DNA from: Candidatus Lloydbacteria bacterium CG22_combo_CG10-13_8_21_14_all_47_15
GTDB lineage: Bacteria; Patescibacteriota; Minisyncoccia; Phycocordibacterales; 21-14-all-47-15
Direction: 5' to 3'
Assembly (NCBI GenBank): GCA_002771515.1
Contig: PCTL01000001.1
Coordinates: forward strand, 7,995 to 71,994
DNA: 64,000 nt
The position numbers were made by a program, and so were the translations under genes. The notes beneath the pieces were generated by a model. That model was not told where the DNA came from, did not search any database, and was given only the letters and a program-made list of their open reading frames with translations. This document shows, piece after piece, positions 11,980 through 16,354 of this stretch (the stretch's first letter is position 1; each line of letters begins with the position of its first letter).

Positions 11980-12070
11980 GGAGAGGTGGCTGAGCGGTTG
12001 AAAGCGGCGGATTGCTAATCCGCTATGGGGCGTTATAACCCCATCGAGGGTTCGAATCCCTCCCTCTCCG
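11980..12070 (+). tRNA. tRNA-Ser (anticodon GCU)
   Basis: Acceptor GGAGAGG/CCTCTCC, anticodon arm GCGGA-ttGCTaa-TCCGC, long variable arm, T-arm GAGGG-TTCGAAT-CCCTC, discriminator G. Confidence 0.9.
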
Positions 12071-12072
12071 CA
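12053..12072 (+). repeat. direct repeat copy 1 (3' end of tRNA-Ser), att-like
   Basis: cgaatccctccctctccgca; an exact 20-nt copy recurs at 12249-12268. Confidence 0.8.
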
Positions 12073-12248
12073 ACGACATTTTTGAATAGCGTTTCCATAG
12101 CTATTCAAAAGTGGCGTCTTTCGAAGTGAGGAGAGATTCGAAAGGCGGAGGCGGAGAAAAGTTTGCAAAACTTTTCAAACCGCCGAGCCAGGGTCGTGAG
12201 CGCGTATTTACAAGAAGCGAAGCGACTATGTAAATAGCGACTCCTGAC
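12073..12248. other. 176-bp structured spacer between the two att-like repeats (three hairpins)
   Basis: Three inverted repeats: TTTGAATAGC…GCTATTCAAA at about 12081-12110, CTTTCGAA…TTCGAAAG at about 12117-12143, and AAAAGTTT-gca-AAACTTTT flanked by GGCGG…CCGCC at about 12144-12184. No ORF. Confidence 0.5.
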
Positions 12249-12268
12249 CGAATCCCTCCCTCTCCGCA
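12249..12268 (+). repeat. direct repeat copy 2 (duplicate of tRNA-Ser 3' end), att-like
   Basis: Exact cgaatccctccctctccgca, 176 bp downstream of the tRNA. It abuts the HTH reading frame. Confidence 0.8.
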
Positions 12269-12285
12269 GAAAGAAACTTCGCGAT

Positions 12286-12462
12286 TTGAAAGGGTTGCGA
12301 GCAAAACAGGGGTTAACGCAGGATGATTTGGCGAAAAAAGCCGATATTAAATATTCCACACTTACTAAAATTGAAGGTGGTGTCGTTACGAAGCCAAGTG
12401 TCCAGACGATAGCAAAAATTGCCAAGGCATTAGGTATTCAGATGGAAGAGTTATTGAAATAA
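12286..12462 (+). CDS. XRE-family (Cro/CI-type) helix-turn-helix regulator, start uncertain or N-terminally truncated
   Basis: Open frame 12235-12462 translates …RRKKLRDLKGLRAKQGLTQDDLAKKADIKYSTLTKIEGGVVTKPSVQTIAKIAKALGIQMEELLK*, a clear HTH_3 domain. There is no in-frame ATG before the domain, and the frame runs through the att-like repeat. TTG 12286 is only a guess for the start. Confidence 0.55.
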   Translation: MKGLRAKQGLTQDDLAKKADIKYSTLTKIEGGVVTKPSVQTIAKIAKALGIQMEELLK

Positions 12463-12472
12463 TTTAAATACT

Positions 12473-13396
12473 ATGAGCAAAAAATATCTTTTTGGAACTA
12501 TCGTCACGCTGTTGATTACCGGCATAGCGGCAATTTTGGTTTTCGCTGTGGATTGGGCGGATGTAAAAATAAAAGAAGAAATACGGGATACGGTTACTCG
12601 GCAAGAAATCGTGAAAGCGCAAGCAACCGAAGCCCTAAAATCTGTCGTGGATGTTGCCAACGAACTATCCGGCATTACATCCGGCGCAGTATTCAATTTT
12701 GAAATCGATGATATGGACGGGAGATCGGCGAATTTTGGCATAGTGCGGTATGTTGACGAAGTAAAAGGAGAATGGATTGTGGAAGAACACACCGTTACAT
12801 TTAGAGAAACGAGTTCGCCTCAAAGTAATTTTGCAGAGGTTGACAGAGACACGAATAGAGTCATTTCCATGCACCGACCTGTGCCAGATTTTGCGGCAAG
12901 TGGTGACGCGCTGTCCGCAGAGAAACTTGAAGCAATAGCGCGGCAATTCGTGGAGAGAGTGTATCCAGAATTTGCAAACGGAAGCAGGCTTGAATTTGAT
13001 CCGGGAAGCAAGAATGCGCCGGCCAAAGCGACAAATTACTTCTATCGCTGGAACGATAAACAATTCGCTGTCCCCGACGGATTAGATATGGACATACCGC
13101 CGTTTATTCAGGTCGGCATTACTTCAACTGGTTTTATATTCAGCTATGACAACACCGTCCAGCTTTATCGCAATTTGCCCAAAGAAGCCCTGCGGACTTT
13201 ATGCGGATTCTTTGAAATGCCTTTTATCGTTGATTCATCGCTTGATCCAAAAAAAGGTGAAGTGGTAATTTGGTTTGGTGGAGGTCAGTATCTTGTATTG
13301 CCTTTTGAGCCAGAAACTGATTTTGAAGGTTGCTCGGAATCAGCAAAAAGTTGGTTGAGAATGCATCCCTACCTTAACGATTCTGGTAAAAATTAG
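12473..13396 (+). CDS. hypothetical membrane-anchored protein
   Basis: 307 aa with an N-terminal TM helix and no recognisable catalytic motif. It starts 10 nt after the HTH stop. Confidence 0.6.
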   Translation: MSKKYLFGTIVTLLITGIAAILVFAVDWADVKIKEEIRDTVTRQEIVKAQATEALKSVVDVANELSGITSGAVFNFEIDDMDGRSANFGIVRYVDEVKGEWIVEEHTVTFRETSSPQSNFAEVDRDTNRVISMHRPVPDFAASGDALSAEKLEAIARQFVERVYPEFANGSRLEFDPGSKNAPAKATNYFYRWNDKQFAVPDGLDMDIPPFIQVGITSTGFIFSYDNTVQLYRNLPKEALRTLCGFFEMPFIVDSSLDPKKGEVVIWFGGGQYLVLPFEPETDFEGCSESAKSWLRMHPYLNDSGKN

Positions 13397-13400
13397 CACG

Positions 13401-13619
13401 ATGAATGAAATGGTAAAAGTTAAAAACTACAGCAACAGAATGGATGCCGAAGTTGATAAGGCATTACTTACATCACACGGCATACACTGTCTTATTACAT
13501 CAGATGATGTTGGTGGTATGCGACCTGACCTTATGATGTCTTCAGGCGGTGTGTGGGTTTTGGTTGGCGAGGCAGATGTAAAACAAGCATCAAAATTTCT
13601 TGCAAAAAATGCCATATAA
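13401..13619 (+). CDS. small cytoplasmic protein, DUF2007-like (putative signal-transducing domain), tentative
   Basis: 72 aa, resembling the roughly 70-aa PF09413-type proteins (…RMDAEVDKALLTSHGIHCLI…GGVWVLVGEADVKQASKFL). The family assignment is from memory. Confidence 0.45.
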   Translation: MNEMVKVKNYSNRMDAEVDKALLTSHGIHCLITSDDVGGMRPDLMMSSGGVWVLVGEADVKQASKFLAKNAI

Positions 13620-14969: not shown

Positions 14970-15005
14970 CGATGAAAATCTATATAGTCGGTCATTCCAA
15001 TATTT

Positions 15006-15797
15006 ATGACAAAATCAAACACTTCAACATCATTCAGTGCAAGCAAAATTATCATCGGGGTTTTCGGCGTAGTTGTTATTGTTGGTTTTGTGCTCGGTAT
15101 CTATAGTTTTCTGCGCGGATTGGAAAATTCGCCAAAGTTTGATGACACAAAAATCACTTCTCCCGAAGTAGCCGAGTTTTCGGAGAAAATTCAAAACTAT
15201 GTCGTGGAAAACATCGGCCAGCCCATTGAAGGATTCAATGCCGACATTTACCTGCGTGCGTTTCCGGGACTTTTTGAAGCGGATTTTGACGGAGTGGAAA
15301 CTTGGGAAGGAGAGTATGCGTACGCGAACGGCGAATTGACTTTTGAACGCACAAAAGCGCAACCGATAACCTCTGCCGAGGATGCCATTTCAAAAAAAGG
15401 ACACCAGATGCTTTTTGAAAATGTGCAAGGTCGTCTGGGTATCAACCTATCGGTGGATGAGGTGGTGGACGGAATAATAGCGCAAGGGTTGGGAAAAGTA
15501 ACCGGCACGATACTCTTCGGCCCGACATGTCCCGTTGTGAAAGACCCGCCCGACCCGCAGTGCGCCGACAAACCGCTTTTTGGAGAGTTCATTGTCCAAA
15601 ACGCAATGGGGAGCACAGAATTTGCGAGATTTGGAACGCAAAGAGACGGTTCGTTTGAAGTAACGCTTCCTGCCGGGGAATACTACATCACATGGGCAGA
15701 GCCACGAGGATTACCGGGAGCGCAGGGACAATTGGTAAATGTGACAGCGGGCGAAACATCCGAATACACGATTACATTTGATACGGGGATACGATAA
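15006..15797 (+). CDS. hypothetical membrane-anchored protein (paralog B) with a C-terminal carboxypeptidase-regulatory-like/transthyretin-like beta-sandwich
   Basis: N-terminus MTKSNTSTSFSASKIIIGVFGVVVIVGFVLGIYSF. C-terminus …DGSFEVTLPAGEYYITWAEPRGL…VNVTAGETSEYTITF is typical of CarbopepD_reg-like folds. Confidence 0.55.
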   Translation: MTKSNTSTSFSASKIIIGVFGVVVIVGFVLGIYSFLRGLENSPKFDDTKITSPEVAEFSEKIQNYVVENIGQPIEGFNADIYLRAFPGLFEADFDGVETWEGEYAYANGELTFERTKAQPITSAEDAISKKGHQMLFENVQGRLGINLSVDEVVDGIIAQGLGKVTGTILFGPTCPVVKDPPDPQCADKPLFGEFIVQNAMGSTEFARFGTQRDGSFEVTLPAGEYYITWAEPRGLPGAQGQLVNVTAGETSEYTITFDTGIR

Positions 15798-15961
15798 CAA
15801 AGATTGGCCCGCAAAAAATTTTCGCCGTGGGAGCGAGCGGAGGCTGGGCTGGTCAGTTCTTCTCGAAAAAGGTTCGCGCAAAGGATATAATTTTACCGCA
15901 TCTTGATAAATTTGTGCGGTTTGGTATTTTGTATACGGTGGGGTGTATGGTTCCGTCATCA

Positions 15962-15992
15962 TACCACTTAGTGGTTGAGCCACTAAGTGGTA
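15962..15992. repeat. palindromic repeat element (CCACTTAGTGG-ttga-GCCACTAAGTGG)
   Basis: taCCACTTAGTGGttgaGCCACTAAGTGGta. The same motif forms the terminator stem at 40926-40965. Confidence 0.6.
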
Positions 15993-16031
15993 TATGGGGG
16001 GTATGGTTTCGTTAGATTAACGGGTGAATAA

Positions 16032-16304
16032 ATGAAAGGAGATGGTATGGAGTGCAGTGAGTCTCGAGAGATAATACGCCAAATGCACGATAGGGCAGCC
16101 ACGATATCATTGGCAAGCTCTAGTATACTTGCTGCCGATGAGCATCTGATAGGGTGTAAGGATTGCAAACTATGGTTTCATCGGGAGATGTGCGCGATTG
16201 CGGAGGCGTTTCTTCAGGACGAACAGGTGAATGAGGATATGTTGGCCACACACAGTATGATGCATGAATTTTTAGATACCGATTGTGCTGCCACCATTGC
16301 ATAA
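16032..16304 (+). CDS. ZAS-type (zf-HC2, HX3CX2C) putative anti-sigma factor, orphan
   Basis: …ADEHLIGCKDCKLWF… contains the H-x3-C-x2-C zinc-binding anti-sigma motif, plus an upstream Cys (MECSES…). No sigma factor gene is adjacent. Confidence 0.45.
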   Translation: MKGDGMECSESREIIRQMHDRAATISLASSSILAADEHLIGCKDCKLWFHREMCAIAEAFLQDEQVNEDMLATHSMMHEFLDTDCAATIA

Positions 16305-16309
16305 GTAAA

Positions 16310-16345
16310 CCGCCCGAAACGCTTTAGCGTTTCGGGCGGTTTTTT
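16310..16345. terminator. bidirectional rho-independent terminator
   Basis: CCGCCCGAAACGC-ttta-GCGTTTCGGGCGG followed by TTTTTT on the + strand, with an A-run on the - strand. It lies between convergent genes. Confidence 0.85.
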
Positions 16346-16354
16346 GACCGTGAT

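Follow-up and report, generated by a model that had tools for sequence, protein, structure and literature searches.

The window analysed here, a stretch of 64,000 nt from contig PCTL01000001.1 of Candidatus Lloydbacteria bacterium CG22_combo_CG10-13_8_21_14_all_47_15 (positions 7,995 to 71,994 of the forward strand), contains a tRNA-Ser(GCT) gene followed by a short spacer, an exact copy of the tRNA 3' end, and an operon that starts with an XRE regulator gene and continues with five genes encoding membrane or small proteins, denoted here by their length in amino acids (P307, P72, P91, P355 and P263). The locus is surrounded by core genes, with a MacB-type ATP-binding cassette (ABC) transporter, tRNA-Ile, RecG and 2-oxoacid:ferredoxin oxidoreductase upstream, and glutaredoxin, ComF and a type IV pilus operon downstream. 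P355 (PIP73971.1) and the RecA of the window (PIP73991.1) are both deposited as proteins of a Candidatus (Ca.) Lloydbacteria metagenome-assembled genome (MAG), and the same strain is present in six public contigs with the 355-aa gene (identity of at least 99.95%). The features of the locus, in window coordinates, are as follows.

11980..12071 (+), tRNA-Ser(GCT), intact, the anchor of the variable slot (ARAGORN; Rfam RF00005, 63.2 bits)
12053..12072 (+), attachment (att)-type core, copy 1, from the tRNA T-loop to the 3' end (exact 20-mer)
12073..12248 (+), hairpin-rich spacer between the two cores, without an open reading frame (ORF), single-copy, with a predicted fold and no Rfam family
12245..12268 (+), att-type core, copy 2 (attR-like), with a TGAC prefix that is not in the tRNA; left boundary of the variable gene slot
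12286..12462 (+), XRE/Cro-CI helix-turn-helix (HTH) regulator, 58 aa, TTG start, first gene of the operon (HTH_3, E=1.5e-15)
12473..13396 (+), P307, 307 aa: N-terminal transmembrane (TM) helix, long stalk helix and YpeB-like tandem PepSY-type domains, predicted to be extracytoplasmic
13401..13619 (+), P72, 72 aa: DUF2007, small cytoplasmic protein, optional operon member (Pfam PF09413, 29.1 bits against a cut-off of 25.7)
13624..13899 (+), P91, 91 aa: small membrane protein with a hydrophobic segment at each end and a Cys-containing loop (ORF)
13902..14969 (+), P355, 355 aa: TM anchor and two tandem PsbP/Mog1/DcrB-like domains, cassette gene
15006..15797 (+), P263, 263 aa: P355-type TM anchor, middle domain and C-terminal beta-sandwich (homologous pieces in L015 (53%), L009, L027 and L028)
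15961..15993 (no strand), perfect 14-bp hairpin after the operon, the probable right-hand transcript end (inverted repeat)
16047..16304 (+), Cys-rich 85-aa protein with H-x3-C-x2-C, conserved core gene and right-flank marker outside the island (start placed after AAAGGAG)
16307..16342 (no strand), bidirectional intrinsic terminator between the Cys-rich gene and glutaredoxin (17-bp inverted repeat, arms 100% complementary)

The 20-mer CGAATCCCTCCCTCTCCGCA, with which the tRNA-Ser gene ends, is found exactly at 12053-12072 and 12249-12268, as the preliminary description of the locus had stated, and has no further copy in the window even if up to three mismatches are allowed (none is expected by chance). 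The starts of the two copies are 196 nt apart, and what they enclose is the 176-nt spacer, which has no ORF, while the gene block lies outside. The first 18 nt of the 20-mer are present in at least 120 IMG/VR contigs; among the 121 matches examined, 80 lie within full tRNA genes and 41 are orphan copies, several of which start at the same base as copy 2 of the window. In four (L030, L096, L136, L135) of the five such contigs examined, which are unrelated viral ones, a Phage_integrase ORF is located 80-150 nt from the orphan core. In position and extent, the duplication is thus typical of tyrosine-integrase recombination into tRNA-Ser and, judging by these sequence contexts, is in kind a real att core, in agreement with the earlier suggestion that it marks site-specific integration into the end of a tRNA gene. 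The core with its TGAC prefix has no match in IMG/VR.

The content of the slot that follows the core varies between relatives. The closest relative found, represented by two contigs from one sample, L025 and L023 (ComF 61%, PORg 53%), is the only syntenic one available, and its tRNA-Ser, as well as that of another relative, L026, is 96-98% identical to that of the window. A comparison at the tRNA-Ser site, proposed in the preliminary description, shows that both flanks are kept in L025 and L023, in the order ABC-MacB, tRNA-Ile, RecG, POR, tRNA-Ser on the left and Cys-rich gene, glutaredoxin, ComF, PilM on the right, and that a single DUF4406 gene between the core copy and the Cys-rich gene takes the place of the XRE..P263 genes of the window. 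The 24-mer formed by TGAC and the 20-mer is identical in L023 (24/24 nt) and is followed there by different DNA, that of the DUF4406 gene. The sequences differ between the window and L023/L025 from the first base past the core, and nucleotide homology between the window and L023 resumes at 16132. Scans of genome contigs with PORg alone and with a PilM alignment gave no matches, and the metagenome search yielded one short locus, L022, that confirms the glutaredoxin-ComF-PilM synteny only.

Moreover, the same operon is found at a second location. In L016-L020, part of a group of contigs (L015-L020) from a second MAG and several metagenomes, it directly follows tRNA-Arg(CCT) and tRNA-Ala(GGC), with bactofilin and DAGK genes upstream, and is 82-89% identical to the window at the nucleotide level. 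Its members there are an XRE remnant, P307 (79%), P91 (72%), P355 (90%) and a P263-like gene. In L015-L020 the last operon gene is truncated before the beta-sandwich and the DUF2007 gene is absent; an IS3-type transposase gene lies downstream of the operon in L015. As a separate observation, the XRE homologue of L016 (1978-2183) lacks a conventional start codon (ATG, GTG or TTG) up to and including the aligned start, its frame being open for 10 codons after a TGA; it keeps 70% amino acid identity without frameshifts, which points to a recent 5' truncation or an unconventional start.

P355 also travels alone. Its homologues with 67-71% identity are found in L007, L021 and L012: in L007 (Ca. Ryanbacteria) 4.4 kb from tRNA-Asn, amid GIY-YIG, HsdR-fragment and HTH_17 genes, in L021 after a two-component system, and in L012 (Logan DRR771675, 33-kb contig, positions 1-21074) among genes for GpA terminase, SU10-type capsid and adaptor, and amidase. 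The latter contig is phage-like and probably comes from a Parcubacteria phage. Between the terminase and the structural genes of L012 there is a block of YceG, a 312-aa protein, HTH_17, a methylase/NgoFVII/Vsr restriction-modification cassette, MarR and the P355 homologue (68%); the 312-aa phage ORF has a weak P307-like C-terminal stretch (E about 1.5e-4). For comparison, ComF of other named Lloydbacteria is 44-46% identical to that of the window, and no value outside the nearest relative exceeds 49%.

Other versions of the operon differ in composition. L027 has P307, DUF2007 (85% identical to P72), P91 (72%) and a protein made of the anchor, the beta-sandwich and a PsbP-like domain, with no P355, followed by VanY and two M14 carboxypeptidases, while L028 has XRE, VanZ, P307 and a protein consisting of the anchor and the P263 middle domain. 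P91 homologues are known from L015-L020 (72%) and from L009 (59%). As far as these loci go, the conserved core of the operon is P307, P91 and an anchored beta-sandwich protein, and XRE, DUF2007, VanZ and P355 are optional.

The GC content of 12269-15797 is 44.3%, compared to 47.7% in the window, which places the block at the third percentile among windows of the same size. Because of the DUF4406 replacement, the second location behind tRNA-Ala, the separate travel of P355 and the low GC content, XRE..P263 (12269-15797) is, by its sequence record, an accessory, horizontally exchangeable operon in the slot after tRNA-Ser(GCT). The accessory island of the preliminary description thus stands as far as the replacement, the tRNA-Ala location and the GC content are concerned, but not as a unit bounded by the repeats.

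The operon starts 1 nt past the second core, at a distance of 197 nt from tRNA-Ser. What had been read directly from the sequence is all there. The Cro/CI-type HTH gene that follows the repeat matches HTH_3 with 57.4 bits (cut-off 23) over profile positions 3-55 of 55; its frame is open upstream across the core to a stop at 12235 and has no earlier start codon. The five genes that follow it, up to 15797, are confirmed as co-directional and tightly packed ORFs. The near-identical N-termini noticed in two of the proteins belong to P355 and P263 and are encoded by a common 16-nt exact repeat and a 59-nt repeat at 83% identity, and the DUF2007 assignment of the small protein is above the Pfam cut-off. 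The interval between the tRNA and XRE genes yielded no sigma-70-like promoter.

Sequence libraries say little about the cargo. PHROGs, PADLOC and NCBIfam give no match for the five cargo proteins or the Cys-rich protein, searches of PDB sequences with single proteins and with profiles give none either, and the XRE gene matches generic regulator models only (PADLOC-DB 2.0: HTH_VI, C-protein, CapH); the defence module anticipated earlier therefore finds no backing in these libraries. The structure predictions, which cover P307 and P355, are more informative. The P307 family comprises 53 representatives among 1.84 billion proteins (23 sequences in the alignment), and the model shows an N-terminal anchor and a tandem PepSY fold similar to YpeB, with protease propeptides, FoxB, YycH and YpmB next among structure matches. 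The P355 model (pLDDT 78) consists of a TM helix and two PsbP/Mog1/DcrB-like domains, the best structure matches being BT_1490, the type VI secretion system (T6SS) immunity proteins TplEi and Tsi3, PsbP, LpqN, DcrB and TiME. Hence, the statement that the five proteins have no assignable function stands with respect to sequence libraries and is superseded with respect to these two folds, YpeB/PepSY-like and PsbP/DcrB-like: the families are new at the sequence level, while the folds are known. The domains of P263 were called from sequence, and its C-terminus matches CarboxypepD_reg (PF13620) with 17 bits, below the cut-off of 32.3; a faint match is also seen in the L027 homologue.

The anchored proteins are predicted to span the membrane once and to expose most of their mass on its outer side. 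The common anchor motif, M[TK]KS.KIIIG..G...IGF.LG..F.RGLEN, is followed by different domains in different proteins.

P355: PsbP-like, PsbP-like
P263: middle domain, beta-sandwich
246-aa protein of L027: beta-sandwich, PsbP-like
P0009: PsbP-like, GerMN

In proteins without this anchor layout the same kind of mixing is observed, the L009 protein combining the P263 middle domain with Gmad2, and P0011 and P0012 mixing further parts. By their domain calls, the anchored proteins are thus a combinatorial domain set on one anchor.

The spacer between the cores is predicted to fold very stably (-87 kcal/mol for 12066-12290, z=-6.5), with a hairpin at 12073-12117. It occurs once in the window, no Rfam family matches it, and its left arm has no match in IMG/VR. 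Its first 122 nt are 94.3% identical to L026, compared to 86.3% for the adjacent coding sequence, after which the two sequences diverge completely. Most of the seven L026 substitutions fall in hairpin loops; none is compensatory, and one stem gains a mismatch. In L023, copy 2 is preceded by a hairpin unlike that of the window. The end of contig L025 (10584) coincides exactly with the tRNA-Ser 3' end, and the end of L023 (12145), from the same sample, lies 29 nt past the orphan copy. The contig L026 ends 23 nt past its point of divergence from the window, and such breaks in L025, L023 and L026 could reflect population heterogeneity at the tRNA-Ser slot. As the repeats are exact, the spacer is conserved above the level of core genes and L026 diverges within it, the spacer probably consists of the joined ends, or collapsed remains, of an integrated element with present or recent mobility in the lineage.

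Several other candidates for the spacer were rejected. A decayed tRNA-Ser pseudogene, suggested by GGAGAGA and by GCGG..CCGC, gave no tRNA match even at E<=10. A miniature inverted-repeat transposable element does not agree with the single copy in the window, and other loci, except for L026, lack the sequence. An alignment with the GIY-YIG element of L007 was unconvincing. Separately, GGAGAGATTCGAA at 12130-12142 is 92% complementary to the tRNA T-arm (12051-12063) and pairs with the second 20-mer in the predicted fold.

Taken together, these data slightly favour the reading of the locus as an exchangeable accessory operon at a tRNA-Ser slot, marked by an att-type repeat and encoding envelope proteins that would restrain hydrolases. 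Starting from the anatomy, variability, mobility and folds described above, we infer the following integration route. The two core copies would bracket the collapsed remnant of one integrated element, while the operon most likely represents an older tandem occupant that came in, or was exchanged, at this same site and has since lost its integrase and distal att site. P355 would be a separately mobile cassette, inserted by recombination in the common anchor-coding segment, and the XRE protein would set the expression of the operon.

As for the biochemical role, we infer that the ectodomains may be binding partners of peptidoglycan hydrolases or peptidases outside the cytoplasm, whether made by the cell or coming from elsewhere, and would restrain these enzymes or determine where they act. 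This proposal is based on PepSY precedents, on PsbP-fold immunity proteins and on wall-enzyme neighbours in L027, L028 and L012. YpeB holds SleB inactive (bioRxiv 10.64898/2026.06.01.729290; PMC6660665), and the PepSY protein CopD controls penicillin-binding proteins (PMC10653890). Protease propeptides of the PepSY type are a third parallel. Hydrolase binding by the ectodomains is a tentative assignment, a physiological role in defence or immunity is considerably more doubtful, and the overall picture, in which an envelope module is mobile and its proteins bind or restrain hydrolases outside the cytoplasm, is put forward with low confidence.

A number of observations weigh against this interpretation. 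The operon has no associated integrase, excisionase or distal att copy among the scanned ORFs of the window: the gene table covers 3902-24969, the recombinase scan additionally included 13 longer ORFs elsewhere in the window, and no recombinase domain was found in the table, the island proteins or these ORFs, the region 1-3900 and many ORFs at 24.9-64 kb lying outside the scan. The earlier remark on the absence of an integrase is thus upheld over this range. In the search for a third copy of the 20-mer, suggested at the same time, none was found in the window, exact or degenerate, including the right end of the block, local alignment scores there being no higher than in the shuffled null. The view of the repeats as island limits has to be abandoned, since the copies bracket the spacer only, and integration of the operon itself through the site would not follow from them. 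The operons of L027 and L028 are not adjacent to tRNA genes. The GC shift is modest, and in tetranucleotide usage the block does not stand out (7%). L016-L020 are about as similar to the window (82-89%) as L026 is in PORg (about 86-87%), and L026 and L016-L020 could come from one organism, in which case vertical descent and relocation would suffice. As for function, P307 has no Pfam PepSY match at E<=1, only a weak match to DUF4901 (E=0.002, below the cut-off), and P355 has no Pfam PsbP sequence match. The operon of the window neither contains nor adjoins a hydrolase gene, and wall peptidases follow the operon in L027 only. PepSY and PsbP folds are promiscuous binding scaffolds, and the neighbourhood links to wall enzymes come from two contigs.

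The same evidence can be arranged differently. If the operon were an envelope-level anti-phage or anti-toxin immunity module, acting by superinfection exclusion or by neutralising incoming lytic enzymes and traded between the candidate phyla radiation (CPR) and its phages, then the P355 fold, common to TplEi, Tsi3 and DcrB, the phage lipoproteins among BFVD structure matches and the resemblance of XRE to defence-associated regulators (the HTH_VI, C-protein and CapH models) would be natural, and rapid domain shuffling and a narrow taxonomic range would fit an arms race. However, the BFVD TM-scores are low (0.26-0.45), PADLOC and PHROGs are silent on every cargo protein, neither the P307 nor the P355 family has a match in IMG/VR, and GenBank phages contain no P355 relative. 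The phage association, moreover, concerns P355 and a weak P307-like stretch in the 312-aa ORF, and the P307-DUF2007-P91-P263 core exists without P355 beside wall peptidases of the housekeeping type; we therefore regard an immunity module as unlikely. Still less probable is an ancestral cluster of the lineage, from which relatives differ by loss or rearrangement and whose proximity to tRNA is incidental or serves read-through from the tRNA promoter. The neighbours of the block on the chromosome differ in every genome examined, DUF4406 replaces it at an otherwise syntenic slot, IS3 is adjacent and end genes are truncated in L015/L016, the GC content is low, and P355 is about 70% identical across Lloydbacteria and Ryanbacteria, in contrast to ComF. 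Vertical inheritance would nevertheless agree with genes that lack an integrase or flanking repeats, with the similarity of the L016-L020 identity to that of core genes in L026 (86%), with the operons away from tRNAs in L027 and L028, and with the missing promoter combined with co-orientation of the operon and the tRNA in both tRNA-linked cases.

Two further alternatives concern the spacer. It may, together with the second 20-mer, be a functional structured RNA or DNA, such as a 3' trailer or leader that base-pairs with the segment resembling the tRNA 3' end, or a landing pad that is maintained. The very stable fold, the conservation of the left 122 nt above the coding level with most substitutions in loops, the complementarity of 12130-12142 to the T-arm and the second copy, and the identity of the TGAC-prefixed 20-mer in L023 despite 61% ComF identity would all follow, although recent horizontal arrival of a mobile element explains the higher spacer conservation equally well, and the 20-mer should be identical anyway if each integration regenerates it from the conserved tRNA. 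As the L026 comparison shows no compensatory changes, a mismatch gained in one stem and complete divergence after 122 nt, and Rfam has no match, a functional element seems a minor possibility. Finally, the 176-nt insert could be a miniature ORF-less member of a family of inserts that duplicate tRNA ends, whose autonomous form would carry a GIY-YIG nuclease and no tyrosine integrase. In L007 (5449-6048; Ca. Ryanbacteria CG10, PFEF01000006), a GIY-YIG gene (92-96 aa) lies between tRNA-Asn and a 16-17-nt copy of the tRNA 3' end, and a second copy of 27 nt from the tRNA 5' end stands about 126 nt upstream, with a hairpin insert of roughly 100 nt carrying the TATGAACTGCTGCATA motif in between, a pattern that may represent a family of small inserts targeting tRNA genes. 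L026 is similar: at 590-690 a 13-nt duplicate of the tRNA-Ser 5' end (TTGGAGAGGTGGCT) lies upstream of the gene, the two copies being separated by an 88-nt insert that carries the hairpin gtaaatatgaaCTGCttcatatttac, a similar hairpin, aaataaaCTGCtttattt, ends the contig, and the insert hairpin, of the TATGAACTGCT..CATA type, resembles that of L007. Still, this explanation is the least probable of those considered here, since the spacer has no significant similarity to the L007 or L026 inserts, the annotated parts of the window have no GIY-YIG gene, the pattern is known from three loci only, and the use of exactly this core by tyrosine integrases is directly documented in viral contigs. A literature search on GIY-YIG elements that duplicate tRNA ends and on CPR tRNA islands yielded nothing pertinent.

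Like islands targeted to tRNA genes by tyrosine integrases (P4-like), the locus uses a tRNA 3' end, has a direct repeat from the T-loop to the 3' end, and carries a cargo of lower GC content that varies between relatives, while the identical core serves as attP beside integrase genes in viral contigs. It differs from them in that there is no integrase or excisionase, the repeats, 196 nt apart, enclose no gene, the cargo is distal to the second repeat with no third one beyond it, and the same cargo is found at tRNA-Ala elsewhere. Thus two defining features of such islands, an integrase and repeats flanking the cargo, are missing.

Among the possible functional analogues, P307 is only about 10% identical to YpeB (the Bacillus spore protein that holds the cortex-lytic enzyme SleB), CopD and YycH-type proteins and lacks a Pfam PepSY match, and its operon has no gene for a SleB-type partner. 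To our knowledge, sporulation has not been reported in the CPR lineage, unlike the Bacillus host of YpeB. P355 is 5-16% identical to proteins of the PsbP/Mog1/DUF1795 fold (DcrB, LpqN, TplEi (Tli4), Tsi3) and is attached by a TM anchor, not by a lipobox. Unlike TplEi and Tsi3, it has no cognate toxin or T6SS nearby, and this generic binding-scaffold fold does not fix a function. With phage morons and superinfection-exclusion proteins, such as Ltp-type lipoproteins, P355 shares a 68%-identical copy in a phage-like contig and phage lipoproteins as BFVD neighbours, but it has no sequence relationship to characterised ones and no PHROG match.

CPR/Patescibacteria are cell-attached bacteria with tiny genomes. 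We know of almost no characterised membrane-anchored, outward-facing CPR protein, and such proteins would be the first to consider in host contact, wall remodelling and phage resistance. The locus offers a mobile operon, two confidently modelled folds, a shuffled common anchor and one gene copy in a phage-like contig; if its proteins restrain wall hydrolases or block phage, it would be an accessible entry into CPR envelope biology. A more far-reaching version would be a CPR-specific combinatorial toolkit of ectodomains (PsbP-like, PepSY-like, beta-sandwich, Gmad2 and GerMN on one anchor) for envelope immunity or superinfection exclusion, exchanged between Parcubacteria and phages via tRNA att sites. 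We consider it a long shot, slightly more so than the immunity module; if true, it would be a new type of surface defence in minimal-genome organisms. In other respects the island is conventional, a decayed tRNA-linked islet without a recombinase.

The right flank of the slot is conserved. The Cys-rich gene has a homologue in L023 in the same position, convergent with glutaredoxin, with the motif H-x3-C-x2-C present in both (EHLIGCKDC in the window and EHLGACLDC in L023). Because of this conservation and convergent arrangement, it is, as far as the sequences tell, a conserved core gene linked to glutaredoxin-ComF-PilM and not part of the cargo. The preliminary description had called it an orphan anti-sigma-like gene of the island with the motif of zinc-binding anti-sigma (ZAS) factors. 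The motif is indeed there, but the gene is not part of the island; unlike ZAS anti-sigma factors, the protein has no Pfam zf-HC2 match (E<=1) and no membrane segment, and its gene is a glutaredoxin-linked core gene with no adjacent sigma factor (the neighbours are P263 and glutaredoxin). The strong bidirectional terminator said to close the block proved to be a perfect 17-bp inverted repeat at 16307-16342, and an equivalent hairpin is present in L023.

Several minor observations may be added. The palindrome CCACTTAGTGG-5-CCACTAAGTGG, within the hairpin that follows the operon, occurs at 15964-15990 and again at 40931-40957 (none expected by chance), where it forms a terminator-like hairpin after a TPR gene; the first copy is bracketed by an 18-nt direct repeat (15939-15956, 15995-16012). 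In the left flank, ARAGORN calls a tRNA-Ile with the anticodon TAT (UAU) at 7032-7103 (-), which recurs in L025 at 5129-5200 (-). In bacteria AUA is usually read by a lysidine-modified CAU tRNA, and a UAU tRNA-Ile would be unusual. The alpha and beta parts of 2-oxoacid:ferredoxin oxidoreductase (POR_N, PFOR_II, TPP_enzyme_C) form a single fused ORF (669-707 aa) at 9320-11443, followed by a separate gene for the gamma subunit, and this fusion is kept in L025.

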